Assembly: GCA_963762165.1 (NCBI GenBank) | Contig: CAVXJN010000001.1 | Span: 570,900-634,899 of the forward strand | DNA length: 64,000 bases | Origin: an uncultured Gammaproteobacteria bacterium | GTDB taxonomy: Bacteria > Pseudomonadota > Gammaproteobacteria > JASBUN01 | Direction: 5' to 3' | In this document: positions 3,149-53,381 of the stretch, one piece after another | Layout of the letters: each line of letters opens with the position of its first letter | Numbering within the stretch: the first letter of the stretch is position 1 | The notes under the pieces: model-generated | Told to the model about the DNA's origin: nothing | Databases searched by the model: none | Seen by the model: only the letters and a program-made list of their open reading frames with translations | Made by a program: the position numbers and the translations under genes

Positions 3149-3451
3149 ATGAAGCGCAAACGGTTTACCGAAGAACAGATCATTGGGATTTTGAAAGAGC
3201 ACGAGGCGGGTGCGAGTGTGGCCGATCTCGCCCGGCGCCATGGGGTAGTCGAGCAGTCGATCTACCGTTGGAAGAACAAGTACGGCGGCATGGACGTGTC
3301 GGAGGCGAAGCGGCTGCGCGAGTTGGAAGCGGAGAACGCAAAGCTCAAAAAGCTGCTGGCCGAGTCGCTCCTGGACAATGCCGCGCTGCGGGAGATCGCC
3401 GGAAAAAAATGGTACCGCCCGCGGCGAAGCGGCAGGCCGTTCAACACGTAG
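3149..3451 (+). CDS. IS3-family transposase OrfA (HTH)
   Basis: MKRKRFTEEQIIGILKE... is the typical IS3/IS407 OrfA N-terminus, with a leucine-zipper-like C-terminal part. Confidence 0.85.
   Translation: MKRKRFTEEQIIGILKEHEAGASVADLARRHGVVEQSIYRWKNKYGGMDVSEAKRLRELEAENAKLKKLLAESLLDNAALREIAGKKWYRPRRSGRPFNT
3404..3410 (+). promoter_or_regulatory. Programmed -1 ribosomal frameshift slippery heptamer (AAAAAAA) joining orfA to orfB
   Basis: GGA AAA AAA TGG in the orfA frame; a -1 shift reads ...GKKMVPPAAKRQAVQ..., which continues into the orfB frame. Confidence 0.6.
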
Positions 3452-3954
3452 TAGCGATGAAGCTACTGAGCGAGCGGCAGGCGTGCCAGTTAGTTCGGTT
3501 GTCCCGGTCGATGTGTCGGTATCAGTCCCGGCGAGCCGATGACGCCCGTTTGCGGGTGCGTCTGCGGGAACTGGCGCAGCAGTACCCGCGCTACGGCTAT
3601 CCCACGTTGCATGGTTTACTCAAGGCCGAGCAACGGGTGATCAACCCTACGAGGACGTATCGGGTCTATGCCGAAGAAGGGCTCCAGGTCCGTACCCGGC
3701 GCCGCAAGCGCTTGCAGCGGCCCCGAACGCCGATCGCACTGCCCAATCGCGTAAACGAACGCTGGTCCATGGACTTTGTGAGCGATCAACTGGCTGACGG
3801 CAGACGATTCCGGGTGTTGAACATCATCGGCGACTACTCGCGCGAGTGCGTTGGACAGCTCGTCGAAACCTCCATCTCCGGCATCCGGGTCGCGCGCTAT
3901 TTAAGCGAACTGTGCCAGCAGCGCGCCAGACCCGCGACCATCGTCACCGATAAC
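3407..3954 (+). CDS. IS3-family transposase OrfB, N-terminal portion (DDE integrase core, interrupted after ...TIVTDN)
   Basis: The orfB frame (part of ORF 3028..4089) reads ...RFRVLNIIGDYSREC...ATIVTDN and then diverges; the matching continuation GPEFTSKA... resumes at 5551. Confidence 0.7.
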
Positions 3955-7207: not shown

Positions 7208-7988
7208 AGGCGTCGACGGCGAAACCTGGGCTGTTTACAGTACCGAACAGTTCACCTACTGAATCTGGCTCAGGGCTGCGAGTGATGGGAGAATCTTTTT
7301 CGGAGGCCCCGTCCGCTTTCTCGGCCGGCCCAGGCGCAAACAGCTCGTCCATAGTGGCGGGCTCATCAGCAGCCACGATAGCTTCCGCCGAGGCGGCTTG
7401 ATCCGCGTCACCCACGCCCGCCGCCGACTCCTGGGCCTCGGGTAATTGCGCGGGCTCATCAGTTGCGAACAGATCATTCATGCTTGCCGGATCGGCTGCA
7501 GCGACCCCGCGCTCTGCGGTTTCTCCGCCCGGCAGAGGCTCCGGCACGAAAAGTTCGTTTATGCTCGACGGCTGGGCTGCAACCTCCCCCCGGGGCGACG
7601 TGCCGCTTTCCGCGTCGTGCTCCGGACCCGGCCGACCAACCACACGTATCAAAGTTGGCTCAGGCCATTGGTTGGCAATTAGGTCCTGTTGCGCTCTTTC
7701 GGCCTGGGAACGCGTCTCATATGGCCCCAACCACACGCGAGTTGTATTCGGATTCCGTGCAGAATCGATGCGCGCATGATTCACCGGCAAGCCCGAAGCC
7801 TTGATGCGAGACACCACATGAGCAGCATTCTCCGGGTTCGCAAATACTCCCACGGTAACCTCATAGGCAGCATGAGCGAAACTTGAAAACAGCATCCAAG
7901 CCAGGAGAACACCGATCTGCACAGCGGCTTTATTAGGTGGTGGTTTCACTGTCTTTTTCTCCTGAATGCTATTCGGAAATTTGGCCAT
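7143..7988 (-). CDS. Signal-peptide protein with N-terminal SPOR (peptidoglycan-binding) domain and an acidic linker carrying repeated E/D-L-F motifs
   Basis: Signal peptide AVQIGVLLAWMLFSSFAHA; SPOR-like block YEVTVGVFANPENAAHVVSRIKASGLPV...RVWLGPYETRSQAERAQ; four repeats INELF / MNDLF / MDELF / VGELF. Confidence 0.55.
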   Translation of the reverse strand: MAKFPNSIQEKKTVKPPPNKAAVQIGVLLAWMLFSSFAHAAYEVTVGVFANPENAAHVVSRIKASGLPVNHARIDSARNPNTTRVWLGPYETRSQAERAQQDLIANQWPEPTLIRVVGRPGPEHDAESGTSPRGEVAAQPSSINELFVPEPLPGGETAERGVAAADPASMNDLFATDEPAQLPEAQESAAGVGDADQAASAEAIVAADEPATMDELFAPGPAEKADGASEKDSPITRSPEPDSVGELFGTVNSPGFAVDACGERIFPKRVRVHLRGTGAFF

Positions 7989-9105
7989 CGCTGAGACCGA
8001 CTAGCCGATCAGCCATTTCCATCACCCGTGGATCATGGGTTGAGAACACGAATGTAGTGTCTTCCTCACGGTTGATCTCTCTCATCAACCGCAAAATGCC
8101 TTCTCCCGTAGCGTGATCAAGATTTGCGGTCGGCTCGTCCGCCAATACCACCGAGGGGCGCGTGGCCAGCGCCCGAGCAATCGCGACCCGCTGGCGCTGT
8201 CCTCCACTGAGCTCGTTGGGACGGTGTCGTTTGAATTTGGACAATCCTACGACGTCCAGGTAGCGCTCCACTCGCTGGCCCCGCTTTTCTCGAGATAGAT
8301 CCTTATTTTGCAAAAGAGGATACTCGATGTTTTCCCACGCAGTAAGCACCGGAAGCAAATTGAAGGTCTGAAATACGAAACCCAATGTCTGGGCCCGAAG
8401 GTCCGCCAGTTGATCGGGACTGCGCGAACTCACATTCTGATTTTCGATGTAAATATCGCCACGAGTAGGCGTATCGATACAACCGATCAAATTGAGCAGC
8501 GTGGATTTTCCGCTGCCGCTTGGACCGGCCAAAGCCAAAAACTCGCCTCGCCGGACTTCGAGGCTTACGTCGCGCAACGCCGAGACCGTCTGTTTGCCAA
8601 GCGCGTATTCCTTCCACACTTTGTCGACCCTGACCAGTGCATTGTCCGTATCCGAAGCGGGGTGGTCGACTCCTGAGACCGCAAAGGTTAGCCGGTAATC
8701 GCCGAGCACAACCAAGTCACCGTCCCGCAGGGCGCTGCGATGACACTTGGCGCCGTTGACGATGAGCCCGTTGGTGCTGTCCAGATCTTCGATGAGGAAG
8801 GTACCGCCTTGCGTGCGGGTGATCTTGGCGTGCTTTCGGCTGACCGAGCAGTCTTCCAAGAACAGGTCGGAACTGGGCAGTCGTCCAATGTAGAAGCGAG
8901 CCCGGCGAACTTCGACTGTCCGCCGTCGCTCGGAGCCTCGTTCCACTTGCAGCGTCGCAATCCGGTCTTCCATTTGCACAAACTCGGTTCCCGCCCCTCC
9001 CGTCCGGGGGGCCAATCGCTGACGCGCACCCGCCCTCTTCCCAACCATGAGGGAACACCCTCGGCTGTGGTAAGCTCTGCCAAATCGGGTGAACACGAGC
9101 GACAC
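7969..9105 (-). CDS. ABC transporter ATP-binding protein with N-terminal FHA domain (LolD/MacB-like ATPase)
   Basis: FHA core IGR...VSRKHAKI...FLIEDLDSTNGLIVNG...LRDGDLVVLGD; Walker A GPSGSGKST, ABC signature LSGGQRQRVAIARAL, Walker B VVLADEPT; true start may be the internal Met at about 8976. Confidence 0.8.
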   Translation of the reverse strand: MSLVFTRFGRAYHSRGCSLMVGKRAGARQRLAPRTGGAGTEFVQMEDRIATLQVERGSERRRTVEVRRARFYIGRLPSSDLFLEDCSVSRKHAKITRTQGGTFLIEDLDSTNGLIVNGAKCHRSALRDGDLVVLGDYRLTFAVSGVDHPASDTDNALVRVDKVWKEYALGKQTVSALRDVSLEVRRGEFLALAGPSGSGKSTLLNLIGCIDTPTRGDIYIENQNVSSRSPDQLADLRAQTLGFVFQTFNLLPVLTAWENIEYPLLQNKDLSREKRGQRVERYLDVVGLSKFKRHRPNELSGGQRQRVAIARALATRPSVVLADEPTANLDHATGEGILRLMREINREEDTTFVFSTHDPRVMEMADRLVGLSDGQISE

Positions 9106-9975: not shown

Positions 9976-11187
9976 TCATATATTTTGGCGCAGCGCATTG
10001 ACGATATGCAATTTCGAGGCTCTTCGTGCCGGAAATAACGACGCCAAGACTGCCGCGACTGCACCAACAACACTCGCCAATGCTAGCACTGACGGGACAA
10101 TGCGAATCGATGCGACATAGCCAGTATTGGAGCCCGGCGGAGGAGGCATCTGTATTCCGATTTGCGAAAGCACAAGCGAGAGCAATGCACCAATACCGAC
10201 GCCGAGTGCCGCGCCGGTCAAGCCCAGTATTATGTTCTCAACCAGCACCAGTCGAAAGATTTGGCCACGCCGGTTGCCGAGCGCCAGCAAAGTCCCGAAT
10301 TCGCCAGTTCGCTCGTAGATTGTCATGTTGACGGTGCTTGCGACACCGAGCAATACCATGATCAGGATAATCGCCTGAAGCGTAGCGAACTGACGCCGGT
10401 AAAGTGCGACCGTCTTATTGTAGAAATCTGCCAACTCGTACCAAGGCTTGATTTCATATCGCCCGCTGTCCAAGCGGTCGGTCAACGCCTGGACGACACG
10501 ATCCGTATTTTCCGTCCGGTCCAGGACCGCAATGATCGAATGCACTGCATTCGAAAACAACAACTCTTTGGCCGTGGACAACGGGACTCGAACCGCGCGA
10601 TCGTCGTAATCCTTGGAAAAACTTCGAAATACGCCTATCACATTGAATTCTAATGTATTTAACGCACCTTCTGGCGTGCTTACCGTGACTGTCACGTAGC
10701 TGCCTGGCTTGAGTTGCAGCGCTCCGGCGACACCCTCACCAATCAATGCGCCATATTGATCCGATCCTGTTAACTGTCTGCCCGCAACGATTGTCAATGC
10801 GGAGCCCAGCCGGGCTTCCGCATCCGGCTCGATCCCCTCCCCGCGGATTGGAATATCCCCTTTTCCATTGCTCGCCATTCCGGAAAAATAAGAGCGCGCC
10901 AGCACTTCTTTCACATGCGGCAGCGCCGTCAACCGCTCCACTAGCTTCGCCGGATCGCTGATCGAATACTTCACCGGATCACGACGACCGAATTTTGAGT
11001 ACCCTGCGTGGAACACTTGCAGGTGTCCCAAGCGAGAATGAATCGTGGCTTCGCGCAACTGCACGAACGAGTCTTCGATGAAGCCACCGCTGACGACGAT
11101 CGCGGCTACGCCTGATACGATCGCCGCCAATGTAATTGCCGTGCGAAGACGATGCCGAAACGTATTACGAAATGCGAGCTTCAACAT
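9976..11187 (-). CDS. ABC transporter permease, FtsX/MacB/LolE-like
   Basis: 403 aa; N-terminal TM, large periplasmic domain, three C-terminal TMs (FtsX fold); paralog of the next gene. Confidence 0.8.
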   Translation of the reverse strand: MLKLAFRNTFRHRLRTAITLAAIVSGVAAIVVSGGFIEDSFVQLREATIHSRLGHLQVFHAGYSKFGRRDPVKYSISDPAKLVERLTALPHVKEVLARSYFSGMASNGKGDIPIRGEGIEPDAEARLGSALTIVAGRQLTGSDQYGALIGEGVAGALQLKPGSYVTVTVSTPEGALNTLEFNVIGVFRSFSKDYDDRAVRVPLSTAKELLFSNAVHSIIAVLDRTENTDRVVQALTDRLDSGRYEIKPWYELADFYNKTVALYRRQFATLQAIILIMVLLGVASTVNMTIYERTGEFGTLLALGNRRGQIFRLVLVENIILGLTGAALGVGIGALLSLVLSQIGIQMPPPPGSNTGYVASIRIVPSVLALASVVGAVAAVLASLFPARRASKLHIVNALRQNI

Positions 11188-11211: not shown

Positions 11212-12441
11212 TTAGATAGAATGACGCAGCGCATCCACAATCTCTAAACGAGAAGCCTTCCACGCCGGATAGACTCCAGCGATACTCGTAGTCACCCATG
11301 CGAGCAAAAATGCATTAGCCACGATCCCCCACGTGAGAAGGATTTGACCAGTGTATCCTTTGTCCATTCCTGGCGGCGGCGGCATGGGGATACCGATTAT
11401 TGAAATCAGCCACGCGAGCACAGCGCCGATGCCAAGTCCTAAGATCGCTCCGATCAACCCCAAGAGTGAGCTTTCCCAAAGAAAGAGACGAAGAATCGTT
11501 TTTCTCTTTAAGCCGATCGCCATCAAAGTACCGATTTCTCCCGTACGCTCCAGTACATTCATCACCAGAACATTGGAAATACTCAACACCACGATAAGAG
11601 CGATGATGAGCTCAACGGCCCCCATTTGCTCAGACAGTAACTTCACCGTTTTTCTGTAGAAATCCGCACGGGCGTACCACGGAATGAATTTCACATTACG
11701 ACGCTCGGAATGGAACCGTGCTCGTAACGCTCGCAGCATATCACCAGTACTTTCCGTATCGGTTAGCAAAATCAGCCACGAATGAGATCCCGAAGTTCGC
11801 AACAGCGTGCGGGCTTGGCTGATAGGCAACCGCAGAGCGGCATCATCGTATGCTTTGCTTACACTCACGAACAGGCCGACCACGCGGAGCTCGATCGCGT
11901 TTATTCCTCCACTTTCCGAATTAGCCAAAAGCACCACCGAATCGCCGGGTTTAGCGTTTAGGTTTCTAGCCAGTCCGCGTCCAAGAACCACTTCACGTTC
12001 ATCGGGGGCCCCCGCGTGGGATAGGCCTCTACCTGACACTATCCTTAATGCACGACTGAGCTTCACTTCTTTTCCGGGCTCGACCCCCTCGCCGAGAAAT
12101 GAAACGGTCGTATCCCCCCGACTAATCATGCCGCTTAGGGAAAGGCGCTCGGCGATTAGGTCGACGCCGGGCATTTTTTCTATCTGTTTCTCCAACGGAG
12201 AATTTTCCGGCAACAGATAGGCAAAGGGATCCGCGACGCCCGCTTCCTCGTAGCCTGGCTGAACCACTTGAATGTGGCCGAATTGTGAATGAATCGTCGC
12301 TTCACGCATTGCCCAAAAAATCCACGCAACGAAGCCCTCGGCCAGCATCAGGGCCACTACCGCCGCTACGACCGTAGCCAGCGCTATTGACGCACGTCGG
12401 CGATTACGCAAAAGATTCCGGACTGGCAATGGTATTTGCAC
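11212..12441 (-). CDS. ABC transporter permease, FtsX/MacB/LolE-like (second copy)
   Basis: 409 aa with the same architecture; IPMPPPPG motif shared with 9976..11187. Confidence 0.8.
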   Translation of the reverse strand: MQIPLPVRNLLRNRRRASIALATVVAAVVALMLAEGFVAWIFWAMREATIHSQFGHIQVVQPGYEEAGVADPFAYLLPENSPLEKQIEKMPGVDLIAERLSLSGMISRGDTTVSFLGEGVEPGKEVKLSRALRIVSGRGLSHAGAPDEREVVLGRGLARNLNAKPGDSVVLLANSESGGINAIELRVVGLFVSVSKAYDDAALRLPISQARTLLRTSGSHSWLILLTDTESTGDMLRALRARFHSERRNVKFIPWYARADFYRKTVKLLSEQMGAVELIIALIVVLSISNVLVMNVLERTGEIGTLMAIGLKRKTILRLFLWESSLLGLIGAILGLGIGAVLAWLISIIGIPMPPPPGMDKGYTGQILLTWGIVANAFLLAWVTTSIAGVYPAWKASRLEIVDALRHSI

Positions 12442-13021
12442 GATACGCTGATGCCTAACGACGCTCTGTTAGCAGGCGCCAATCTTACCACGGCACGATT
12501 CCGCGCCGCCGAAAACCACGGTCTCGCAATCGACCAACGATGGAACACCACACATGGCAAAAATGACTATGCACAATCTTGCGGAGAAATCGCGATCATG
12601 GCGTCCGCTCGCCATTCTAAAGCGAATGCCCATGCCACTACTCGACTACCCCAGCCAATACTGTCAGCACACAGACGCCATTTCATCCAACGAGAAAAAT
12701 GCGGCGTAGGTCACAGATGCCTTCTAGACAAAGGCCGCTTTTTCAATTATATAACGGTATCTGACACACCGCGCGACAGGTTGAATTTCCCATCCCGGGA
12801 CGGGTTCACGACCCGTCTACCGTCGTCACGCTGAATAGCAACGATCGGCGCGCCTCGAGTTAATCGCCGATACCGGCCATAAAAAACAACGCTCGACAGA
12901 CAATAATTATGAAGCTTTGTGCTTTGCCTGCCCTTCTCCCCTCTCGATCGAGTTGCCCTAGCACGACCCGCACAAAGGATCGCGACAAGAGTATCGACCG
13001 AAACGATGTGCTTAAATAGAC

Positions 13022-14122
13022 ATGAATTCTTCAGGTAGCCAAAAGGTGGTCACCAATTACGGACTCATGACTGCGTTTTTACAACGCATGATTGCTGCAG
13101 GCATCCGCGCCCCATCTGGAGACAATTGCCAGCCGTGGTGGTTTGAGGCGAGCGCAGGGAATACACTTAGCATCCACGTCGATCTACCGCAGGCCGAAAG
13201 CTTTTTCGATTTCAAGCACCGCGGGTCCCTGCTATCAGTCGGAGCAGTAATCGAGAACATGCGCCTCCAGGCAGCCATGGAGGGTTTTGACTGCACGTTA
13301 TCGTACCCCGGGAACACCGGGGAAACCGGTCCCGCAGCTCAGGTAGCATTCCGACCCACATCCGCCAAAGGGTCTCAGGCTACGCTGCAAGCCGCAATGT
13401 GGCAACGTACCGTCAACCGACGGCCGTTCCTACCAGCACGGATCATGCGCAGTAAACTTCAGGCGTTGACTGAGAACCCTGTCGCAGGCGTGCGCGTCAG
13501 ATTTTTCCAGCGTCGCAGTGAAATCAAACAATGGGCGCGGCTGATCTATGCAGCGGATCGAATACGATATTCTCACCCAGTTATTCATGAGCAGGTATTT
13601 TCGAAAATTCTTTTGTCCAAGAATGAAGCACTAACCAAACGTGTCGGACTGGAAATCGATCGTCTCGGCGCAGGACCCATCGCCAAACCACTCATGCGCT
13701 TGATACGTCCTTGGGACCGAATGCATCGGCTCCGATATATTGCCGCGGACCGATTACTCGCCCGTCAAGCACAGATGCTGGCCCTGGCCAGCGGTGCGCT
13801 GTGCGTCGTTTCGATCGAGACCAATGACAACGACGCTTGGATTCGCGCGGGCGAACAAGTCGAACGCTTATGGATCAAAGCACAGTCATTAGGACTATGT
13901 GTACATCCTATAACCGTGGCTCTTTTCCTTGACATGCGCTACCGCGAAACCGGCACAGACGGATTTCGGGCCGATCACCAAAAGTTCTTGGAAGAGATCC
14001 GCGCGGGCATCGACCGCTTGATCCCAGACGGCCAATGCGCCATGTTGTTTCGGCTTGGAGTTGGCCCAATGATGGCACATCCGGCCGTTCGCAAATCCCC
14101 GGAAACGTTTCTTCGGCAATAA
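13022..14122 (+). CDS. Nitroreductase-superfamily flavoprotein, two-lobed/tandem type (366 aa)
   Basis: N-terminal nitroreductase motif RAPSGDNCQPWWFE; length consistent with tandem-lobed nitroreductase/SagB-like dehydrogenases. Confidence 0.55.
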   Translation: MNSSGSQKVVTNYGLMTAFLQRMIAAGIRAPSGDNCQPWWFEASAGNTLSIHVDLPQAESFFDFKHRGSLLSVGAVIENMRLQAAMEGFDCTLSYPGNTGETGPAAQVAFRPTSAKGSQATLQAAMWQRTVNRRPFLPARIMRSKLQALTENPVAGVRVRFFQRRSEIKQWARLIYAADRIRYSHPVIHEQVFSKILLSKNEALTKRVGLEIDRLGAGPIAKPLMRLIRPWDRMHRLRYIAADRLLARQAQMLALASGALCVVSIETNDNDAWIRAGEQVERLWIKAQSLGLCVHPITVALFLDMRYRETGTDGFRADHQKFLEEIRAGIDRLIPDGQCAMLFRLGVGPMMAHPAVRKSPETFLRQ

Positions 14123-14188
14123 AACGCAGCGTCTGCGCATAATAGCTGTCATATTCAAACGAAACGCGTGCCCCACGGAGAGTGTAAT

Positions 14189-15220
14189 ATGGACAAAGAA
14201 CTGAAATTCGACGACTTAGCCCTGATTGCCGCGGGCCATACCGCGTTCCAACTATTGTGGTCCGGTCTGCAACTCGGGTTGTTTGATTTCCTGTCCGCGA
14301 ATCCCGGTGCATCACGTGACCAGATCATGAAACACGCGGACCTCCAGGAGCAACCTGCCCGAATTCTCTTGATCGGTCTAACGACACTGAAGCTGATAAA
14401 AAAGGAAGGGGATGGTTATCGGAACGCCGACGTGGTAGCGCAAGTTCTGGTATCCAATAGCCCAGCGTACATGGGCGACGTGTTGGGATGGCAATACCAT
14501 ATTGTCTATCCGGGCGAGATGGACCTTCTTCGCGCGTTGCAGGAAAATACGAATGTGGGGCTGGGGCGATTCACCGGCACGGAAAACAACCTCTATGATC
14601 GCCTCTCGCACACCCCCGAACTGGAGAAGATTTTCCATGACGCGATGAGTTCGTTATCGAAGTCGGCCAATGTGCTTCTGGCCGAAGAGGTCCCCCTCAC
14701 GAGCATCTCTCATCTGGTCGACGCAGGCGGAGGCGATGGTACGAACGCTATCACCCTCGCTAAAGCCAACCCGCATCTCAAGGTCACCGTATTTGACTCG
14801 CCCACGGTCTGCGCCTTGGCTGAGCAGAACATACGCGAGGCAGGCATGGGGGACCGTGTAGACACCTTTCACGGCAACCTTTTTAACACCGACCTCCCCA
14901 CTGGTATCGACGCCATCTTGCTGGCGCACATGATGACCATCTGGTCTCCGGAGCACGACACGACTGTGCTGAAAAAGGCTTATGACGCGCTTCCCGCCGG
15001 AGGTCGGGTGATCGTGTTCAATATGATGGGGAACGACGATGAAGACGGGCCAATCACGGCAGCGTTGGGATCGCCCTATTTCCTGTCGATCGCCACCGGC
15101 GAAGGCATGCTATACACCTGGAAAGATTATGAATCATTTATGGACCGCGCCGGCTTTAAAAAGATCGAACGCATTTCACTGCCAAGAGATCACGGCGTGC
15201 TAATCGGCATCAAGCAATGA
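14189..15220 (+). CDS. Class I SAM-dependent O-methyltransferase (COMT-like, dimerisation domain plus Methyltransf_2)
   Basis: SAM motif LVDAGGGDGTNAITLAKANPHLKVTVFD; ATG at 14189 preceded by GGAGAG; the ORF tool's 14168 start is GTG. Confidence 0.7.
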   Translation: MDKELKFDDLALIAAGHTAFQLLWSGLQLGLFDFLSANPGASRDQIMKHADLQEQPARILLIGLTTLKLIKKEGDGYRNADVVAQVLVSNSPAYMGDVLGWQYHIVYPGEMDLLRALQENTNVGLGRFTGTENNLYDRLSHTPELEKIFHDAMSSLSKSANVLLAEEVPLTSISHLVDAGGGDGTNAITLAKANPHLKVTVFDSPTVCALAEQNIREAGMGDRVDTFHGNLFNTDLPTGIDAILLAHMMTIWSPEHDTTVLKKAYDALPAGGRVIVFNMMGNDDEDGPITAALGSPYFLSIATGEGMLYTWKDYESFMDRAGFKKIERISLPRDHGVLIGIKQ

Positions 15221-16152
15221 CGCAACCGGAAGCCGATAAGAAGCCGCGCAATCCACAAGGTCAAGTCGACGCGCAATTCGACTATCACGCTGCTTTCAGT
15301 CGCAACCTTGGGCTGGTGCAACCCGAAGAGCAGGACACGCTTCGCCGCAGCAAGATCGCGATCGCGGGCCTGGGAGGCGTTGGAGGGGTACATGTGCACA
15401 CCCTTGCACGGCTGGGCATCGGACGATTCCATCTCGCCGATTTCGACTCGTTCGAGTTGCCAAACTTCAATCGCCAAGCGGGCGCAACTGTGTCAAATCT
15501 GGGCAAGAGCAAATGCAGCGTGATGGCTGCTACTTTGACGGACATAAATCCAACGTCTGAAATTACGAGGTTCGAAGACGGGATCCATGCCGGCAACGTA
15601 GATCGGTTTCTTGAAGATGTCGATGTCGTTGTGGACGGCCTCGATTTTTTCGCCGTTGAGGCCCGCGATTTGCTCTATACCCGCGCTCGCGAGGCTGGCC
15701 TTCCCGTCGTCGGCGCAGGCCCCATCGGTTTCAGCGCGATTCTGCTTGTTTTCACACCCGATGGAATGGGCTGGCACGAATATTTCGCGATGGACCTCGC
15801 CAAAAATACGGTGGACAAGTACGTGCTGTTCGGCTTGGGTAATGCGCCGAAGGCTACCCATCTATCCTACATGGATAGGCGCTATGTCAGCCTGGATAAG
15901 AAAATCGGCCCTTCCTGCGCCGCCGCCGTGCAATTATGCGGCGGCTGGATCGGGGCCGAAGTGGTTAAACTGTTGTTGGGCAGGGGGCCTGTATTGGCTG
16001 CGCCCTATTACCACCAATTCGACGCATACAAATGCAAATATGTGCGCGGAAAGTTGAGATGGGGGAATAAAGGACCGTTACAGAGGCTGAAGTTCCTGAT
16101 CTTCAAAAAGATCTATCTCTCGAAATCGCAGAACGCCCGTCAACCGATCTAG
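15217..16152 (+). CDS. ThiF/MoeB/HesA-family E1-like adenylyltransferase (no C-terminal CxxC or rhodanese)
   Basis: Rossmann motif IAIAGLGGVGGVHVHTLARLGIGRFHLADFD...NFNRQ; start overlaps the stop of the methyltransferase (ATGA), suggesting translational coupling. Confidence 0.7.
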   Translation: MTQPEADKKPRNPQGQVDAQFDYHAAFSRNLGLVQPEEQDTLRRSKIAIAGLGGVGGVHVHTLARLGIGRFHLADFDSFELPNFNRQAGATVSNLGKSKCSVMAATLTDINPTSEITRFEDGIHAGNVDRFLEDVDVVVDGLDFFAVEARDLLYTRAREAGLPVVGAGPIGFSAILLVFTPDGMGWHEYFAMDLAKNTVDKYVLFGLGNAPKATHLSYMDRRYVSLDKKIGPSCAAAVQLCGGWIGAEVVKLLLGRGPVLAAPYYHQFDAYKCKYVRGKLRWGNKGPLQRLKFLIFKKIYLSKSQNARQPI

Positions 16153-16234
16153 CGACACCCGTAAGCCGCTTATTCGCTCACGCGCCGACCCGATCTCAGC
16201 AAAACCTGTTTGCCGCTGCATCGGCATAAAAAAA

Positions 16235-16263
16235 CCGCACAGCCAAATCGGCTGTGCGGTTTC
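16235..16263. terminator. Bidirectional rho-independent terminator between convergent genes
   Basis: A-run, then CCGCACAGCC-AAATC-GGCTGTGCGG hairpin (10-bp stem), then TTTC; lies between the ThiF gene and the PEP-CTERM gene. Confidence 0.7.
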
Positions 16264-16283
16264 AGGCAAAAGCCGCGCTGCGC

Positions 16284-17300
16284 TTAGCTACGCGAGGCTT
16301 TCTTCCGACGGCGGGCGGCGCCCGCAAAGCCGGACACAGCAAGCCCGGTTCCCAGCAGGGCCAGTACGCCAGGCTCCGGAACTGCAGTCACATTGACGCT
16401 GGTCAGTGCCGCCAAGGTTAACGTCCAGTTCCCCGCCGTCAGTCCGCTCACATTGAGGCCGAACGTGGAGGCGCCGGTACCAAGGCTGTGGCTCTGACTA
16501 CTGTTGTCGGGGCCGACACCCAGGGTAAGGTTCAAGTCTTCGCTATCTGCGGTCTCGGTACACGCAAGGCCGCCAGAGGCGTCACAATTGTTTGCTGCGG
16601 TACCTTGCGGCGACCAGCTCACTTCCCCGCTGCCACCGGATAGCTGCTGCAGACCGAACGACGCTGTCATGTTAGACTGGGCCAAACCGAGTCCCGTCAA
16701 CTGGTTCACCAGCGCCTGCATTTCCGGATTGGCGCTGAAGTCGAGAATCAAGGTCGCGGGTGAGACCAACCCATTAGCGAGGGTAAACGACAGCGTGAAG
16801 GTAGTGTTGGATTGAATGTTCGTCGATGCCTGCCCTTGGCCGGTGTTCGCAACCTCCGACTCCGCGACCTGCTTGGTCGAAGTCGGTGTTCCCGTCACCA
16901 ACTCGGAAGTGGAGATTTCCGCGTTGGAGTTCGAGTAGGTGCCGGAACCGGGCCCAAACAGGCTGTAGTTGCTGTCCGCACGAGTGATCGAGCTGCTCGG
17001 CGCATTCGCGGCAGGCACGGTCAACACCGGCGATGTAGCGCTACACGGGGTGCCAAAGCTACCACAACCCGCAGCATTCGCATCGGTAGCGCCATTCAGC
17101 GTCGCCGAATCTTCGACGTTGAAGGTGTACCGGGGGCTAACCCCAGTGATCGGGTCATTGTTGGCATCGAACAGTTGGATGCTCAGGCTATTGATATCGA
17201 GAGACGAACCCGCGTATACGTTCGCGCTGGCTTCGCCTACTGCTCCCATCCCGATCGCAGCCGAGACAGCAGCTACCAAAGTTGCTTTTTTCATGTTCAT
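16284..17300 (-). CDS. PEP-CTERM sorting-domain secreted protein (exosortase substrate)
   Basis: N-terminal signal peptide; Ser/Thr/Gly/Asn-rich body; C-terminus VPEPGVLALLGTGLAVSGFAGAARRRKKASRS (VPEP, TM helix, basic tail); RBS AAGGAG upstream. Confidence 0.9.
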   Translation of the reverse strand: MNMKKATLVAAVSAAIGMGAVGEASANVYAGSSLDINSLSIQLFDANNDPITGVSPRYTFNVEDSATLNGATDANAAGCGSFGTPCSATSPVLTVPAANAPSSSITRADSNYSLFGPGSGTYSNSNAEISTSELVTGTPTSTKQVAESEVANTGQGQASTNIQSNTTFTLSFTLANGLVSPATLILDFSANPEMQALVNQLTGLGLAQSNMTASFGLQQLSGGSGEVSWSPQGTAANNCDASGGLACTETADSEDLNLTLGVGPDNSSQSHSLGTGASTFGLNVSGLTAGNWTLTLAALTSVNVTAVPEPGVLALLGTGLAVSGFAGAARRRKKASRS

Positions 17301-17410
17301 CGCTCGTGTTCTCCTTATGTTCGAGCAGTTCCAAGATACTTAAACGTGTGTAAATTTTTTGGGGCTCTTCGTCCTTGCCCCGGCCGTATCGGCTCGCGTC
17401 GTCCTCATGA

Positions 17411-17428
17411 ATGCAAACAGCGGGCCAA
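17411..17428 (-). promoter_or_regulatory. Sigma-54 (RpoN) -24/-12 promoter for the PEP-CTERM gene
   Basis: Minus-strand TTGGCCCGCTGTTTGCAT matches TGGCACG-N4-TTGCW at GG, GC and spacing; about 110 nt upstream of the start codon; the sigma-54 activator PrsR is encoded in this window. Confidence 0.7.
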
Positions 17429-17443
17429 GATTTCGAATACACT

Positions 17444-17462
17444 GTAAATCAGTGGCTTACAA
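17444..17462 (-). promoter_or_regulatory. Inverted repeat TGTAA-N9-TTACA upstream of the sigma-54 promoter (candidate enhancer/PrsR site)
   Basis: Minus-strand TGTAAGCCACTGATTTACA, with further TTACA half-sites nearby (cattTTACAggcc, gatTTACAgtg), 20-60 nt upstream of the -24 element. Confidence 0.35.
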
Positions 17463-17867
17463 TCGCTCACCCGTGCCGGTCGGTGTCCGCGCGGCGCGGC
17501 CTGTAAAATGCGCTGACAGCGTGGCGCAGCGGCAGCGCGGCACTTTACGGAACGCGGCCGCGCCGCCGCCGCTAGTGGCTCGAAGCGGCGCTAGCGGGCT
17601 GTACCGTCGAGTCCTTTTACAGTGCCTACACGCCGCGATATCGGCCCAGGCCCCGCGCGCGACAGCGCATCGGGACTCGGCCACGTTCGCCGCTACCGAT
17701 TGGAGGCGGTTCGCGCCCCGGATTTGTCGAACTTATTGAAGAATTTAACGGAACCACGCCGCGTTGGGAGTATCTTTCTCTGCGAAAGTGCAGCAAAATC
17801 GAACCATTGCGCATCGGACGCCGCCCACACGAGCCCACGACACGGTTCCCTCGCACCTAGACAACCC

Positions 17868-19090
17868 ATGCGCGTTCTAGCACTCCCTTATACGCAGATG
17901 CTTTCCCATGTCAGCCGACCGCTGCTGGTCGCCCAGGAACTGAGAAACCGCGGCTGGGAGGTCATCTTTCGCGGGCGAAGGCCGGTACGCCGATTTCATT
18001 GCTCAAGCCGGATTCCCAGTTTTGCCGCTGGCGGAACCGGACCCCAGAAAACTCTTGGAAAACATCCGTAAGGGCAAAATGAGGTTCGTCACCGACGACG
18101 ATTTCCGGGACTGATAGAGGCGGATATGCTTTTATACCGGCAAGTGAAGCCAGATCTGGTACTCTCCGACTTCCGTTTTTCTGCGCCCATCTCAGCCCAG
18201 GTGGCAGGCATCCCGCACGCAGCCATCGTGAATGCTTCTTCGACGCAATATCGCGCCCTGCCCTATGTGCCGGTGTTCGGCAGGTTGCAGCGCGGCTGAC
18301 CGAACCCGCGCCAACGCTGAGCGCTGTGCTCAACCGCTTCAATGTCGGCCTAGAGATCCGCATTTTTAATCGAGCGATGAGCATTTTTACCCGGCTCAGT
18401 AGAAAATATGGTCTCCAAAAGACCGTTACTGCCACCAACTGCTTAGCCGGCGCCGATCTGACATTGATCGCCGACATTCCCGAATATTTTCCGACCCGAC
18501 GATTGCCCCCCGACTACCATTTCGTCGGTCCCCTGGCGCTTAAAAGCGACGCACCGGCTTCATCCTGGTGGCCGCCGAAAAGAACCGGGCGACCGCTGGT
18601 CTACTTCACGATGGGCACAACGGGATTGGGAGCGTTTTTCCAGTCAGCGCAGAAACTCTTGGCCGATTCTGACATCAGCGCCGTAATCACCACCGGCCAG
18701 CAGGCTGAGGGTATTCATTCTATCGATGACAGGATCTATGTCGAACCATTCATAAACGGCGACCTGGTGATGGAGGTATGTGATCTCGTCGTGTGCCACG
18801 GAGGCAACGGCACCGTTTACCAAGCCCTGCAGTACGGCAAACCGATTATCGGAATTCCCACGCTAGCGGATCAGCAATTCAACATGCGCATGGTGGAACG
18901 CTTGGGCGCCGGGCGGATGATGTCCTGGCACCGATTCCATCGTTACCCCAATTCACTAATGGATCTGATCCATGAGACTATGGAAGATTCATCGATACTG
19001 CACAATGCCGCTCGGCTGCGAGACTCTCTCGCCGAATATCATGCGGCCGATAACGCTGCAGACCTTATGACACAGCACTTTTCGCCACGC
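17868..19090 (+). pseudogene. GT1-family (UDP-glycosyltransferase/MGT-like) glycosyltransferase, disrupted by at least two frameshifts
   Basis: N-terminus MRVLALPYTQMLSHVSRPLLVAQELRNRGWEV in one frame, middle ...DLVLSDFRFSAPISAQVAGIPHAAIVNA in a second, C-terminal GT1 motif HGGNGTVYQALQYGKPIIGIPTLADQQFN in a third (ORF 18326..19171). Confidence 0.65.
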
Positions 19091-19122
19091 CGCGCGAGAT
19101 CGGCTGACGGCGCTACACCTGC

Positions 19123-20397
19123 GTGCCAAGCGCTGCTTCGGCGATCGGTGGACATAGCGAGGACGTGCTAGTGATTCATCCGCCCGAACAGCGAGCTTTC
19201 GTCAAAATCTGGAACGGCGCCGCGCGCCGCCTCGCCGTACCCGTACTACGCCCGTCACTCATGCTTGCCGACGTTGTCGATACGGCGCGGAAGAGGACCA
19301 GATATGACGGCTCCAACGGACTCAACATACTTGAGCCGCTGGAGATCCTCCTGACTTCTCTGCGTGATTCGGGCGATTTGCACGCGTTCGGACAATTCTA
19401 CGTTAGAGCCGTGATCACGAACTTGCTGGAAAACCGACTGAAATTATTTAACTTCTGGCAACAACGCCCTGATATTCTAAGGCAGCGGTTAGAACGGCCG
19501 GTGTTCATACTGGGACTTCCCCGTACCGGCACATCGCTTCTGTTCGACCTACTTTCGCGCGATCCCTGTCATCGATTTTTATCCAACTGGGAAACTACTG
19601 TTTCCCAAATAGACCCAATCGCGAGGCAGCCGGGAGGAAGATCCCGGCGCAGAATCGGTAAACGCCTCGTGCGTTTGCAGGACTATCTGGCGCCAGACTT
19701 AAAGAGCATTCACCGCTTTCACCTCGATGGTCCTGAGGAATGCACGCCTCTGCTGATGCAAAGCCTCAGTACCCAGGCACTTGCCGGAATGTTCAATGCC
19801 CCCGCTTATTCAGCGTGGCTCGACTCGGCACCCCATCTGGAGACATATCGCCATCACAGGCGGACACTTCAAACATTGCAGTGGACGTATCCTGCGCAGC
19901 GCTGGCTACTCAAGTCGCCTGACCATACGGCTGCAGTTAACGCCATTCTGGAAGTCTATCCAGACGCTTGCTTGATCCAATTGCACCGCGACCCGGCCAA
20001 ATCCGTTTCCTCCTGGGCCGATTTAAATGCCGTATTTCGCGAATCTATAGCCGTGTCGTGGACCGTCAATTGTTGGGACAGCAAGTACTGGAAAGGCTGA
20101 CACCGACATGGCCAGCTGTCTACGGCAGCGACAAACGTTCTCCCCGGCCAGATACTGGATTTGCAATACAATGACCTCATATCCGACCCCATCGGCACGG
20201 TGCGGCGGATTTACGTGCATTTTGACCTGCAATTATCCGCCGGTACTTTAACGGCTATCCAAACCTTGCTAGAGAGTCCTCGTCGTTCTAAAAGTGCGCA
20301 CCGTTATCGTCCCGAAGACTTTGGCTTGACCACTGGCGAGATCCACGAATACTTCGCAACTTATATGCAGCTTTTCTCTATTCCGACCGAAGACTAA
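19123..20397 (+). pseudogene. Sulfotransferase-family protein (PAPS-dependent), disrupted by two frameshifts near 20030 and 20140
   Basis: 5'-PSB motif ILGLPRTGTSLLFDLLSRDP; C-terminal conserved ...LDLQYNDLISDPIGTVRRIYVHF...HRYRPEDFGL only in other frames (ORFs 19968..20174 and 20161..20397). Confidence 0.6.
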
Positions 20398-20478
20398 TTA
20401 ATTCCGCAGCCGCGCCAATCATCGCGGACTCACTCATCGCAACGGTTCGCGGGCAAGAACAGTGCATACGCTCAAGGA

Positions 20479-21057
20479 ATGCAAAGGATGAGACTAAGCA
20501 CCATCACTGCTATCGGATCCAGCATATCAGTGGCGGCAACCAGTCTGGCTGCCCTTGGGCATGCCAGTAAGCTTTTGCTATTTTCCTTCGCGGGCATTGC
20601 TGCGGTATGTATTACGTCACTCTTGGCATGGAGTTACGTCTTTATCGCCAACGCCGAGTCCAAAATTCCCTCGAGGTGCCGGTATTGCCTCCGGCTTCAC
20701 ATCGCGTTGCATCTCGTACCCGCAGGCTTCTTGGCTATGAAACTGATTTACCGCGCCCCCGAGCGCTGGGACGCTTGGTACCTCCTTTTAGTGATAGCAT
20801 TTTTCTGGACCGGAAGGGAAACCTGGCGAACGATGTATCAGTACACCAGGTCCATACAATATTTGCTATTTTTTCGTGGCAATACGGGGCTGTTGATCAT
20901 GGCTCCTATAATGCTGACGCTAGGTCATCTATTTCCGCACACTTTTTTCGTCCACGCATTCGAGCGTTTGCTGCTGGTGTACTTCGCCATTCACCTGATA
21001 CTGACCGGTCCTGCCATAATTAAACTGGAGAAGGATATCGAGGTACGAACTTCGTAA
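20479..21057 (+). CDS. Hypothetical integral membrane protein (no recognised family)
   Basis: 192-aa ORF with 5-6 predicted TM segments, in a lower-GC patch; weak RBS; no homolog recalled. Confidence 0.35.
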   Translation: MQRMRLSTITAIGSSISVAATSLAALGHASKLLLFSFAGIAAVCITSLLAWSYVFIANAESKIPSRCRYCLRLHIALHLVPAGFLAMKLIYRAPERWDAWYLLLVIAFFWTGRETWRTMYQYTRSIQYLLFFRGNTGLLIMAPIMLTLGHLFPHTFFVHAFERLLLVYFAIHLILTGPAIIKLEKDIEVRTS

Positions 21058-21128: not shown

Positions 21129-23911
21129 CTATCCATAGACCGCTTCAAGTCTTTCGCGGCCAATTCCACTCTGGATCGAGCGTCTCGTTAGTAACGGATC
21201 GACGATACGTCGTGCGTCGCGTTTCGCGTCGTCTTTCAGTAGCGCACGTGCCAAGTCAAGCTGAATTCGCGCATCGTTCGGTACAATTTTAGCAGCCTGT
21301 TGCAGTGTAGAAAGCGCCAGCTTGGTTTGACCGTTTCTTAGCAGCAACATGCCCATTGTGTCGAGCACCTGCGGGTCGTTAGGCGCCAGTTGTTGAGCGC
21401 GCTCAGCAACCGAAAGTGCGCGCGGGAGATTCTGATCCCGCAGTAGCCAGGCGACATTGTTCAACGCCCGAATATTGGATGGCGAGTGCTCCAAGACTTG
21501 CTCGTAAGTTTTCAAGGCATCGCTTGATTGATCGTTCGATAGGTACGCGCCGGCGAGTTGCATCGAAACCGGTGTATCGCGCGGGTGCTTGTCGACCCAA
21601 GTGCGCATGACCTGGACGGCACGATTGCGCTTATGCTGCGCCCAAAGTGCCCGCGACCAGAGCAATGTCAGCTCTGATCCGGCTTCTTTGCTGTCGCCTG
21701 CTCTAACTTCTGGGCAGCTGCGGCGTAATCACCAGTGAGTAACGCATACCATCCTTCTAGGCCCAACACCTCGACGCGGTCACCGAATTCCGCCCGTAGT
21801 TGCTTGATCTGGATATCCGCATCGTGGATGCGACGCTCCTGTACCATCAGCTTGATCTTACCGATTCGCGCCGGCAAATACTTGGGATCAAGCGAAGTCG
21901 CTTTATCGACCGCCTCGCGTGCGGCCTCCAATTCACCGTTACGTGCCAACGCCTCCCCATACATAAAATTGGCCTCTGGCGACTTGGGAGCAATTTCTTT
22001 CCATTTCTTAAACGATCCCTTGGCACCCAACACGTCGCCAGTCATCAGCTCCGTCCTACCCTTAATGTCGAGCAACCGGGGACACTGGTTAAGTTGACTG
22101 GGCCCAATGTCGCGCGTCAGCTTCATACGTCGTCGAACCGGTCTTGCTCGAACAACCGCTTGGCCAGTGCGAAGCGAATCTCCACCGATTGGGGATTTCT
22201 GCTCAGCGCATTAGAAAGGAGGTCAGTTGCTTTTTGTGGCTGCCCTTGGCCGTCAGTAATTTCGCCAGCAAGAGAGCCGCATCCTGATCTTGGACCTTCT
22301 TCTTGAGGTATCCCGTCAATAAAGATTCTGCTTTATCGAGGTGCCCCTGCTGACGCTCCGGCTTCGCGAGGTTTTTCACTGCAGTAGGGTCAGTCGAGTC
22401 CAACTCCAGGACTTCGTTTAGATATTTTCGCGCCTCGCTCCAATCCGCTGTAGCGAGATAACACCCGGCGAGCAGGTTCAAAGGATCTATCCGCTCCGGA
22501 AACTGCTCGTGTAGCTTTTTCGCCCTGGTCACGGCCAGCTCGAAGTTGCGCGCCTTAAACGCCTCGATCGCATACAATAACTTTCGCACGTATTCCTGCT
22601 GCGCGCTCGCATTACCCGTAGCACCCGCGTCCACTGCGTTGTCGAGCTGCTGATTATTCAGGAGCTTTGCCACCATCAAAGTATAGTTCTCACCGGGTGA
22701 ACCTGAATGCGGGTCCTCGATTTGCTTGGCATATTCCATAGCGCGCTTTGGGTCACCTTCGAGCCATGAAAGCGTTGCTGACAGCCGGAGTATCTCCGCG
22801 TCGTTTGCGTGCCGAGCACGCGCCTGCTGCAGAATCTGGTCCGCCTCTTCCAATTTTGATTGCCGCAGATACACGGCAGCGAGAATGCGTTGGGGGCCGA
22901 CCGCGTACGGCGCTTGTGATGAGGCTTTCTGCGCGAACTGGAGGGCTTGCTCTAAGTTACCCAAAATCAAGTTGGTCGCGGCCAAATACATGGTGGCTTG
23001 ATAAAAATCGGGCACGCGATTGATTGCTGACTGAAATTCCGCCTCGGCCTGGCGATACTTCCGCTGCTTGAAGTAATTGATGCCCGCCACGTAATTGACG
23101 TACGGATGTTTCCGCAGGCCGTATTTCTTTAATGTACGCAGATCTTCGTCCGCTTCGTCGTACTTTCCCTGCTGAGCACGCGCCAAGGCGCGCTTGGCTA
23201 CGTCCGTATTGACATAATGACGGAGGGCAATCGCTTTACTGAACGCCTTTTCCGCCTCATCGGCTTTACCTTCGCTCAGGGCCATCTCCCCAAGCAAGCT
23301 CCAGCTGGCTGCGACATCAGGGTGTTGCTTTTGAACATTCTTCAGTTGCTCTCGCGCCCCAGTCAAGTCACCTTGACGCCACGCTAGCTGCGCGATACCC
23401 ACCTGCGCCTCCGGATAGTCATTGACGACACCCAGCGCATGTCGGTACGATTCGTCGGCATCACGAACGCGGCCCGACCCTAAATAGGCGTGGCCGCGCA
23501 ATGTCCAGTACTCCGCCTGCACGGGCGCCGGCGAGTCTGCCGCGGGCGGCTTCTGGCGCAAATTTCGTCGATCTGAGCTTCCAAAAACTCCGCTCTCATC
23601 AGCGGTACCACGACGGCATCCTCGCTTACACCGAGATTCATGGCGCGCCGCAGTTCTTTTTCTGCGCTTGCGCCATCTCCCAACTCGATGTAGGTGCGAC
23701 CCAATAACCAGCGAGCTTCAGGATTATCTGGATTGACCTGGAGCGCGTTCTTAAGGTCGATGGCCGCGGCTTGGTAATTCCCGCCGTCCCGCGCGTCTTT
23801 TGCGCGCTGTCCGTGCTAGAAATAGGTAAAATTGGTGTCTGAACTGCACCCCGAAATCGCTGTCAGAATCGCGATCGAGAGGCCCGAAAAGATAACTTTC
23901 AACGTCTGCAT
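21129..23911 (-). pseudogene. Second PrsT-like PEP-CTERM system TPR-repeat lipoprotein, degraded (nonsense codon plus several frameshifts)
   Basis: Starts MQTLKVIFSGLSIAILTAISGCSSD (lipobox); in-frame TAG at 23816-23818 after 31 codons; continues colinear with PrsT through ORFs 23480..23704, 22203..23561, 21668..22126 and 21129..21665; total span about 858 codons. Confidence 0.7.

Positions 23912-51221: not shown

Positions 51222-53381
<2,160 letters not shown>

Follow-up and report, generated by a model that had tools for sequence, protein, structure and literature searches.

The window analysed here is the whole 64,000-nucleotide (nt) stretch of a contig from an uncultured gammaproteobacterium, and the genes in question are three neighbours on its plus strand between positions 13022 and 16152, together with a PEP-CTERM protein gene that converges on them. 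The first gene (13022–14122, 366 aa) encodes a tandem-lobed flavin-dependent oxidase of the nitroreductase superfamily, the second (14189–15220, with a longer call from 14168) a SibL-like S-adenosylmethionine methyltransferase of family PF00891, and the third (15217–16152, 311 aa) a ThiF-like adenylating cyclase resembling TyzB ('MoeW') or the N-terminal domain of OxzB. The ThiF and nitroreductase genes lie on one strand with 1.1 kb between them, and the methyltransferase gene is the only gene in the gap. A preliminary description of this DNA had reported three tightly packed genes with translational coupling of the last two, and both features are seen, in open reading frame (ORF) calls that span 13022–16152 and in an ATGA overlap of the methyltransferase stop and the ThiF start. 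The ATG at 14189 is preceded by GGAG at 8 nt and is most likely the start of the methyltransferase, and the nitroreductase may begin at the alternative start 13067. Our reading, with a probability of roughly 80%, is that this cassette supplies the tailoring half of a cluster whose products are N-acyl aromatic amino acid lipids of the oxazolone or N-acyl dehydrotyrosine class. In the trio, the ThiF-like cyclase and the flavin desaturase would constitute a split oxazolone synthetase, joined by a ring methyltransferase.

The characterised enzymes of this kind, OxzB, TyzB/TyzC and TrzS, convert N-acyl aromatic amino acids to oxazolones or N-acyl dehydro-amino acids (bioRxiv 10.1101/2020.06.11.147165; PMC10404671; PMC12856293). 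Among the NCBIfam profiles the ThiF protein passes the stand-alone model NF006077 (383 bits, cutoff 266), and the two window proteins match complementary parts of two models of fused proteins. In PRK14851 (679 aa) the ThiF protein aligns to model residues 19–306, the N-terminal half, with 344 bits, and the nitroreductase to residues 326–675, the C-terminal half, with 205 bits; in the Rv1355c family NF005901 (722 positions) they align to 91–225 with 90 bits and to 372–717 with 191 bits, respectively. The scores against both fused models are under the whole-protein cutoffs, which is to be expected of half-proteins. The two proteins thus correspond to the two halves of fused proteins, and by this Rosetta-stone argument the pair is read as an oxazolone synthetase.

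By Pfam the ThiF protein contains PF00899 alone (5e-46, residues 28–274 of 311). Its adenylation site, made up of a glycine-rich loop, an arginine and an aspartate, appears intact from the alignment of 22 orthologs, where GLGGVGG at 51–57, N85-R86-Q87 and D140 of VVDGLD are invariant. There are four scattered cysteines (100, 234, 241 and 273), no CxxC pair and no rhodanese domain, and the earlier statement that the protein is without a Cys-rich or rhodanese C-terminus is therefore correct. The best solved match in the PDB is TcdA, an enzyme that cyclises the carboxylate of N-carbamoyl-threonine (PMC12596934). An ortholog in Oleiphilus messinensis, 70% identical, carries the NCBI name 'moeW'.

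The nitroreductase shows a weak nitroreductase match in Pfam and also matches the NCBIfam model of the Acg family. The AlphaFold2 model (mean pLDDT 92, pTM 0.91) superimposes over its whole length on the monomeric two-lobed Acg of M. smegmatis (PDB 2ymv; TM 0.70/0.78, E 1e-14), and with ordinary dimeric nitroreductases the match extends over only about half, approximately one lobe, so the preliminary term 'tandem-lobed' was well chosen. The same Acg structure is the sole PDB sequence match below E 0.01 and the closest solved relative of the oxidase subgroup to which the protein belongs, and the model thus predicts a monomeric Acg-like flavin oxidase of the nitroreductase superfamily. By comparison with TyzC and the C-terminal domain of OxzB the protein would be a C-alpha/C-beta desaturase. 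A weak fold match to the cyclodipeptide C-alpha/C-beta oxidase 9exv fits the proposed chemistry.

In the methyltransferase Pfam detects PF00891 (6.5e-31, 107.8 bits) and, with 25.5 bits against a cutoff of 25.6, the dimerisation domain PF08100, and the protein is thus predicted to consist of a Rossmann domain and an N-terminal helical dimerisation domain. The best PDB match by far is SibL (4qvg; E 1e-69, 37.5% identity over 333 aligned positions, full length). SibL is an aromatic C-methyltransferase that targets the ring carbon beside a phenolic hydroxyl using Tyr134 and Tyr295, and it is without the His/Asp pair found in O-methyltransferases of the same fold (PMC4426599). The equivalents of the two tyrosines, Tyr136 and Tyr297 when numbered from the ATG at 14189, are kept in 13 of 13 orthologs including the window protein, and the His/Asp pair is replaced by Thr250-Ile251 in the same 13, all of which have Trp at the position of SibL Tyr99. 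From these residues C-methylation of a tyrosine-type ring seems slightly the likelier outcome when set against O-methylation. The preliminary label of a COMT-type O-methyltransferase therefore holds for the Pfam family, but O-methylation as the activity is less likely with the tyrosine pair of SibL kept and the His/Asp pair gone. A SibL-like enzyme also agrees with the SfmM2-like C-methyltransferase that adjoins ThiF in the Stieleria maiorica cluster for the C-methylated stieleriacines, and since the window enzyme is SibL-like the likely product would resemble these compounds.

For a comparison across genomes one genome per species was scanned for relatives of the ThiF protein, the 80 best loci (44–68% identity) were kept, and their six-frame ORFs were searched with profiles built in this analysis; loci are referred to below by our own L numbers. 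ThiF is fused to a nitroreductase domain in 30 of the 80 loci, in proteins of 650–730 aa. Fusion or a nitroreductase within 300 bp is found in 41, the fused or side-by-side pairing of ThiF and oxidase being also the arrangement of the window, and a nitroreductase lies within 5 kb in 54. A synthase of N-acyl amino acids is located within 10 kb of ThiF in 59 loci according to an iterated profile search in which some drift into other GNAT-fold proteins is possible; the first synthase profile gave 38 loci and missed FeeM-type synthases (e.g. in L005). Either partner is present in 68 loci, and 6 of the 12 loci with neither are on contigs shorter than 9 kb. The methyltransferase is limited to the clade nearest the window, where ThiF is at least 56% identical, namely 10 of the 80 loci plus L001, L002, L083 and L085, of which L002 is the window's own sequence in a second assembly. 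Throughout these 14 loci the methyltransferase gene is placed directly upstream of ThiF, with a gap of −14 to +20 nt in 11 of them and of 47–194 nt in L004, L017 and L085. The order in Oleiphilus is synthase, synthase, methyltransferase, ThiF, nitroreductase.

Two of the relatives carry larger fusions, a single 937-aa ORF with ThiF, nitroreductase and N-acyl amino acid synthase domains (L032, 9971–12784) and a 1273-aa ORF with ThiF, nitroreductase and an additional N-terminal part (L052, 8171–11992). Several others (L005, L006, L024, L074, L077, L079 and L082, all near 10000) combine ThiF with a synthase and often with a Lol-like exporter, with no nitroreductase in reach; the oxazolones made by such loci may be saturated, or ThiF may serve another chemistry there. 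One metagenome-assembled genome of an Elusimicrobia bacterium contains three ThiF paralogs (L014, L016 and L019) that are 57–62% identical to the window protein, with no nitroreductase, synthase or methyltransferase within 10 kb, and their neighbours include a GT4-methyltransferase fusion, a histidine kinase and FG-GAP/OmpA proteins.

Two predicted synthases of N-acyl amino acids are encoded on the minus strand at the left end of the window and would provide the acylated amino acid. Synthase 1 (987–1835) is an exosortase-associated acyltransferase that scores 270 bits against TIGR03694 (cutoff 112), matches the Pfam families Acetyltransf_5, FeeM and Autoind_synth, and is syntenic in the closest relative of the locus, the metagenome scaffold L083. 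Synthase 2 (1942–2769) matches Acetyltransf_5 and FeeM, scores 340 bits with our own synthase profile and is 56% identical to a synthase of L083. The products of L083 are 78% (ThiF), 73% (methyltransferase), 55% (nitroreductase) and 62% (PEP-CTERM protein of the EDSAP-1 family) identical to those of the window. Its uninterrupted gene order is two synthases, a SPOR-DUF1302 protein, an ABC ATPase with an FHA domain, a LolA-like protein, two FtsX permeases and the nitroreductase-methyltransferase-ThiF trio, followed by the convergent EDSAP-1 gene, a GT1 glycosyltransferase, a sulfotransferase, a 192-aa protein and a TPR protein. This order recurs in the window, where an IS3-family transposase gene (3028–4089, plus strand) and an IS110-family transposase gene (4691–5533, minus strand) stand between the second synthase and DUF1302. 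The synthase pair of L083 abuts SPOR-DUF1302 with no such element between them, and by this comparison the IS3 and IS110 elements look like insertions that split the window cluster.

Between the insertion elements and the trio lies a set of genes for a presumptive exporter. It comprises the SPOR-DUF1302 outer-membrane protein (6011–7988, minus strand; Pfam DUF1302 and SPOR), a LolD/MacB-type ABC ATPase with an N-terminal extension (7969–9105, minus strand), a LolA-like periplasmic carrier of family PF17131 (9089–9934, plus strand) and two LolC/E-like FtsX permeases (9976–11187 and 11212–12441, minus strand). A LolA-like carrier adjoins ThiF in L005, L006, L026, L039, L040, L046, L082 and L083, and the Lol-like exporter module is found beside ThiF relatives in at least eight further loci. 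By analogy with the Lol system the ABC transporter, the LolA-like protein and the DUF1302 protein may form a lipid exporter, a parallel to MmpL9 next to the tyz genes in M. tuberculosis and to an MMPL gene in Oleiphilus. The N-terminal extension of the ATPase is about 150 aa, and the L083 ortholog (3281–4270) is annotated with an FHA / Yop-YscD_cpl domain in this part; Lol-like ATPases do not usually have an FHA-type extension, and its presence hints at regulation through phosphothreonine signalling.

Several reading frames of the window are interrupted. The SPOR-DUF1302 gene, a single 574-aa gene in L083, is in two reading frames here with a frame change at about 7225–7449 according to tblastn. 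The GT1 gene (17868–19171) is interrupted near 18290–18314, the sulfotransferase gene (19123–20397) has an in-frame TGA at 20098–20100, the TPR protein gene (21177–21964) is also interrupted, and PrsK (28272–30390) matches only positions 238–679 of its model. The housekeeping gene tgt (51222–52037), whose product matches Tgt only at positions 92–356, is interrupted too, and assembly indel errors are therefore as likely as pseudogenes.

The gene that converges on the trio (16284–17300, minus strand) encodes a secreted, all-beta PEP-CTERM protein with a C-terminal VPEP-TM-RRRKK sorting signal. The product scores 253.4 bits against the EDSAP-1 model NF041538 (cutoff 100) and 23.4 bits against TIGR02595 (cutoff 16), and its homologs carry the NCBI name EDSAP-1, so that by its profile matches it belongs to the EDSAP-1 family and has a PEP-CTERM sorting domain; a literature search on EDSAP gave nothing relevant. 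The ThiF and PEP-CTERM genes share a hairpin terminator (16232–16262) active by prediction on both strands, as had been proposed. It folds with −28 kcal/mol on one strand (z −6.5) and −30 kcal/mol on the other (z −7.9), and it is followed by U7 on the minus strand. A consensus terminator scan of 12300–17800 omitted this hairpin, the strongest of the region, and negatives of that scan should not be over-read. Downstream of the hairpin on the plus strand, and beyond the EDSAP-1 gene, a GT1 glycosyltransferase of the EryCIII/MGT type, a sulfotransferase and a 192-aa protein without a family match (17868–21057, plus strand) are the companions of EDSAP-1. In all four EDSAP-1 loci compared the gene is flanked by GT1 (L083 11098–15973, L086 8500–12907, L087 10001–12968 and L088 7694–12426), and in L083, L086 and L087 its flanks also hold a sulfotransferase and a membrane-like protein (about 192–202 aa), followed by a PrsT-like TPR protein. 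To judge from this gene content, the conserved module could modify the lipid or the protein.

A σ54 promoter of the PEP-CTERM gene had been described as near consensus, and the −24/−12 element TGGCCCGCTGTTTGC (17413–17427, minus strand) does have the canonical spacing TGGC-N7-TTGC, 113 nt upstream of the ATG. The pattern itself occurs 7 times against 4.2 expected, so the motif alone is not significant, and a search with GG-N10-GC was uninformative. The element is kept in L083 inside an otherwise diverged spacer, and it is credible because of its intergenic position and conservation and not by the motif alone. The inverted repeat TGTAA-N9-TTACA reported upstream of the promoter is present at 17443–17461 but is not conserved in L083. 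Conserved between the window and L083, unlike that proximal repeat, is a more distal site at 17501–17519 (minus strand), about 85 nt upstream of the −24 element, with the structure CTGTCA-N3-CATTTTACA and the full sequence CTGTCAGCGCATTTTACAG (TGT-N11-ACA). From its position and conservation this is a candidate activator site, possibly for PrsR, the PEP-CTERM-box regulator. PrsR itself is encoded at 26923–28275, in agreement with the earlier placement about 10 kb downstream.

The model cutoffs are passed in the window by PrsT, PrsR, PrsK and the TIGR03013 glycosyltransferase, and judged by these profiles the window is part of an XrtA/PEP-CTERM locus. The preliminary description had pointed to a link between the enzyme trio and exosortase substrates that it did not recognise. 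The link is real, for PEP-CTERM genes crowd into the first 1 kb around the ThiF/nitroreductase core. In the 80 loci there are 22 ORFs with a PEP-CTERM motif within 1 kb of the ThiF, nitroreductase and methyltransferase core (0.15 per kb), with a density of 0.04 per kb at 1–3 kb and of about 0.01–0.02 per kb averaged over 3–10 kb; 31 loci have such an ORF within 3 kb, mostly within 1 kb. These counts are approximate, since a regular expression was run on raw ORFs and some of its hits, e.g. in L005, are false. The PEP-CTERM neighbours fall in several unrelated PEP-CTERM families. When the look-up was reversed, starting from EDSAP-1 homologs, synthases were found in 3 of 3 genomes and the ThiF-nitroreductase pair in 1 of 3. 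A tracking of N-acyl amino acid synthases with the PEP-CTERM/exosortase system is attributed to Craig, Cherry and Brady (2011) in the later papers PMC7293339 and PMC11072679. No paper in the library searched ties oxazolone synthetases to exosortase, and the oxazolone papers contain no mention of PEP-CTERM. The adjacency is most simply explained by co-regulation in a matrix or biofilm programme.

A pathway can be proposed from these genes. The two synthases (987–2769) would acylate an aromatic amino acid, in all likelihood tyrosine, with a fatty acyl group. The ThiF-like enzyme would adenylate the free carboxylate with ATP, the amide oxygen would attack the adenylated carboxylate to give a 5(4H)-oxazolone (azlactone) ring, and the nitroreductase-fold flavoprotein would introduce a C-alpha/C-beta double bond using O2. 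The SibL-like methyltransferase would methylate the aromatic ring beside the phenol, with either free tyrosine or the acylated form as substrate. The product should be a C-methylated tyrazolone, or the N-acyl dehydrotyrosine formed by its hydrolysis, and might be exported by the LolCDE-like ABC transporter, the LolA-like carrier and the DUF1302 barrel. The families, the pattern of fusion and co-occurrence, the synteny and the motif conservation are from this analysis, and the enzymology of OxzAB, TyzABC and TrzAS is from the literature, where the order of cyclisation and desaturation is free in TyzBC and fixed in TrzS. We infer tyrosine as the substrate, and likewise the position and timing of methylation, the order of the steps, the export route, any role in the exosortase system and any decoration by the GT1 and sulfotransferase.

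The first oxazolone synthetase was OxzA/OxzB of Pseudoalteromonas rubra and other proteobacteria (de Rond, Asay, Moore; bioRxiv 10.1101/2020.06.11.147165). Oxz and the window have the same two catalytic domains and an acyltransferase partner, and the 30 fused ThiF relatives are OxzB-style proteins with a synthase beside them, but OxzB is one di-domain protein with oxzA directly upstream and no methyltransferase, whereas the window has separate genes and its synthases at a distance of 10 kb. The split architecture of the window is that of the Tyz system of M. tuberculosis, in which TyzA (Rv2336, a synthase of N-acyl amino acids), TyzC (Rv2337c, a flavin oxidase) and TyzB (Rv2338c, formerly 'MoeW', a ThiF homolog) make C12:0-tyrazolone (Grigg et al., PMC10404671). 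In both, one operon encodes the ThiF-like cyclase (about 310 aa) and the monomeric flavin oxidase (about 370 aa) as stand-alone proteins, with a separately transcribed synthase and a lipid transporter nearby (MmpL9 in Tyz, the Lol-like ABC transporter in the window). Unlike Tyz, the window has a methyltransferase between the two genes (order nitroreductase, methyltransferase, ThiF), two synthases of the exosortase-associated TIGR03694 type, and a proteobacterial host with XrtA/PEP-CTERM; the likeness is one of architecture. The third system, TrzA/TrzS (Rv1356c/Rv1355c, 'MoeY'), contains with Rv1355c a fused cyclase-oxidase that makes tryptazolones (Kleetz et al., PMC12856293), the protein behind the family model matched above by the nitroreductase (191 bits) and ThiF (90 bits), and its mutated aspartate (D217A) would correspond to the invariant Asp of VVDGLD in the window. 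TrzS differs from the window in being fused, in using tryptophan and in an obligate cyclisation-first order, and in a similarity network of ThiF proteins it falls in another subcluster than TyzB and OxzB.

In gene content the window also resembles the stieleriacine cluster of Stieleria maiorica Mal15 (Mal15_37240–37430; PMC7293339, PMC12479983), which has several synthases, a nitroreductase-family gene and a PEP-CTERM protein gene inside the cluster, and in which the methyltransferase is directly upstream of ThiF (PMC12479983; PMC7293339). Stieleriacines carry a ring C-methyl group and 2,3-dehydrotyrosine, matching the product predicted for the window. The cluster is unlike the window in coming from a planctomycete and in having the nitroreductase several genes away from ThiF. 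The stieleriacine pathway is largely postulated from genomics, with knock-outs only of synthase genes, in S. neptunia.

A number of observations weigh against the oxazolone reading. The two enzymes are placed by NCBIfam profiles, by one gene name carried over from a homolog and by the gene context, and the nitroreductase is only 22–32% identical to most of the nitroreductase partners of the ThiF relatives. Relatives with a synthase but no nitroreductase beside ThiF (e.g. L005, L024, L074, L077 and L079) indicate that ThiF alone does not dictate the full chemistry. In the window itself the synthases are 10 kb from the trio, on the opposite strand and with two insertion elements in between, and promoter scans upstream of the nitroreductase gene gave no σ54 and no convincing σ70 site for the trio. 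The substrate of SibL (PDB 4qvg) is free 3-hydroxykynurenine, not tyrosine, in the actinomycete pathway to the pyrrolobenzodiazepine sibiromycin, and Asp132 of SibL, which assists Tyr134 and is described as strictly conserved in the class (PMC4426599), is replaced by Asn in 12 of 13 orthologs, the window protein among them; for this reason the window methyltransferase is filed as SibL-like and not as a SibL ortholog. Oxazolones were also undetected in the producers of thalassotalic and kyonggic acids and of stieleriacines (PMC12479983), and the role of ThiF there is therefore unsettled.

Some of these points bear on which product is made rather than on the enzyme class, and a different product of the same enzymes, whether from phenylalanine or tryptophan, as an open N-acyl dehydro-amino acid, in a glycosylated or sulfated form, or with an O-methyl group, is a serious possibility to which we give clearly less than even odds. 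Macrolide or EryCIII-type GT1 enzymes act on small lipophilic acceptors, and the GT1 and sulfotransferase genes are conserved in the cluster, although their frames are interrupted in the window, possibly by assembly error; glycosyltransferases are found beside some oxzB genes as well (de Rond et al., bioRxiv 10.1101/2020.06.11.147165). Tyr, Phe or Trp is the amino acid used by the characterised relatives, hydrolysis of oxazolones at pH 8 is a matter of hours, and related natural products have been isolated as open acids. The loss of Asp132 can be counted on the same side, but a tyrosine clamp of the SibL type argues for a phenolic substrate. Azlactones are highly reactive towards amines, and the ring might instead serve as an activated donor that transfers an N-acyl-dehydroaminoacyl (N-acyl-dehydrotyrosyl) group to an amine on the neighbouring PEP-CTERM protein or on the exopolysaccharide, which would link the lipid pathway chemically to sorting by the exosortase. 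This we regard as unlikely: the crowding of PEP-CTERM genes from unrelated families beside the core, and the same adjacency in the planctomycete cluster, are what the idea would predict, yet they fit co-regulation in a biofilm or matrix programme equally well, the motif counts behind them include false positives, the products of OxzAB and TyzABC accumulate as free small molecules, and many oxazolone loci, including those of Mycobacterium, are without a PEP-CTERM system.

Two further readings concern the enzyme class itself. The preliminary description had compared the pair of an E1-like protein and a nitroreductase with the C and B components of the thiazole/oxazole-modified microcin (TOMM) machinery, in which ThiF and nitroreductase would act as docking protein or cyclodehydratase and as dehydrogenase on a ribosomally synthesised and post-translationally modified peptide (RiPP) or on the PEP-CTERM protein. 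There is a likeness at the domain level to the E1-like C component and the SagB-type B component, ThiF-like enzymes are common in RiPP pathways (PMC12596934), and in both settings an E1-superfamily protein and a nitroreductase-fold flavoprotein make or oxidise an amide-derived five-membered heterocycle, so the idea of heterocycle and unsaturation chemistry was sound. The peptide framing was not. The profiles that had been suggested as a check, TIGR03605 for the SagB type and TIGR03603 and TIGR03693 for the ocin-ThiF type, gave no matches at E ≤ 0.01 for the nitroreductase or ThiF, and no YcaO was detected by Pfam or NCBIfam among the about 54 window ORFs scanned, in line with the earlier remark that neither YcaO nor a precursor peptide was visible. 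The 17-codon ORF mentioned as a precursor candidate has no ribosome binding site, as had been stated, but its position is 12909–12962 and not 12948–13001, and it falls in a stretch that is absent from L083. The ThiF protein has no N-terminal peptide-binding domain outside its Pfam match, the nitroreductase is monomeric and Acg-like and not of the SagB type, and the neighbour conserved across genomes is an acyltransferase. Unlike in the TOMM systems, the ThiF protein would itself be the ATP-using catalyst, and the substrate would be a small N-acyl amino acid. A RiPP or TOMM-like pathway is thus very improbable and, each specific test having failed, largely refuted. Least probable of all is a sulfur-carrier or cofactor pathway, suggested by database names such as 'MoeW' and 'molybdopterin/thiamine biosynthesis adenylyltransferase' on homologs and by the Rossmann core, which the MoeB and ThiF models match in part. 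The scores of the ThiF protein are far under the MoeB, ThiF, MoeZ and TcdA cutoffs (e.g. 86 against 449, 79 against 275 and 70 against 304). The Cys-rich or rhodanese region is missing, the cluster holds no MoaD/ThiS-like gene for a small beta-grasp protein, and MoeW of M. tuberculosis has been reassigned by experiment as the tyrazolone cyclase TyzB (PMC10404671). The molybdenum cofactor and thiamine reading was rejected on scores, motifs and context.

The oxazolone reading agrees with the other suggestion of the preliminary description, that the trio could modify a small molecule: the enzyme pair is characterised on N-acyl amino acids, and synthases adjoin it across genomes. The mechanism first proposed was right in outline and wrong in substrate class. 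The kind of enzyme is known, and its close pairing with exosortase-sorted proteins is hardly studied. A concrete pathway here replaces the annotations 'nitroreductase', 'O-methyltransferase' and 'molybdopterin/thiamine adenylyltransferase', and the compounds predicted for this uncultured gammaproteobacterium are C-methylated N-acyl dehydrotyrosine or tyrazolone lipids. New in comparison with the known systems are the split form with the order nitroreductase, methyltransferase, ThiF as a recurrent proteobacterial clade, the LolCDE/LolA-like/DUF1302 exporter that repeatedly accompanies oxazolone-type genes, and the positional enrichment of PEP-CTERM genes right beside the oxazolone-synthetase core. 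If the azlactone were in fact an activated donor, this would explain both the unrelated PEP-CTERM families found within 1 kb of the core and the tracking of the synthases with exosortase, and loci of this type are suited to asking whether the role of oxazolone lipids and the tracking of synthases with exosortase share one answer.

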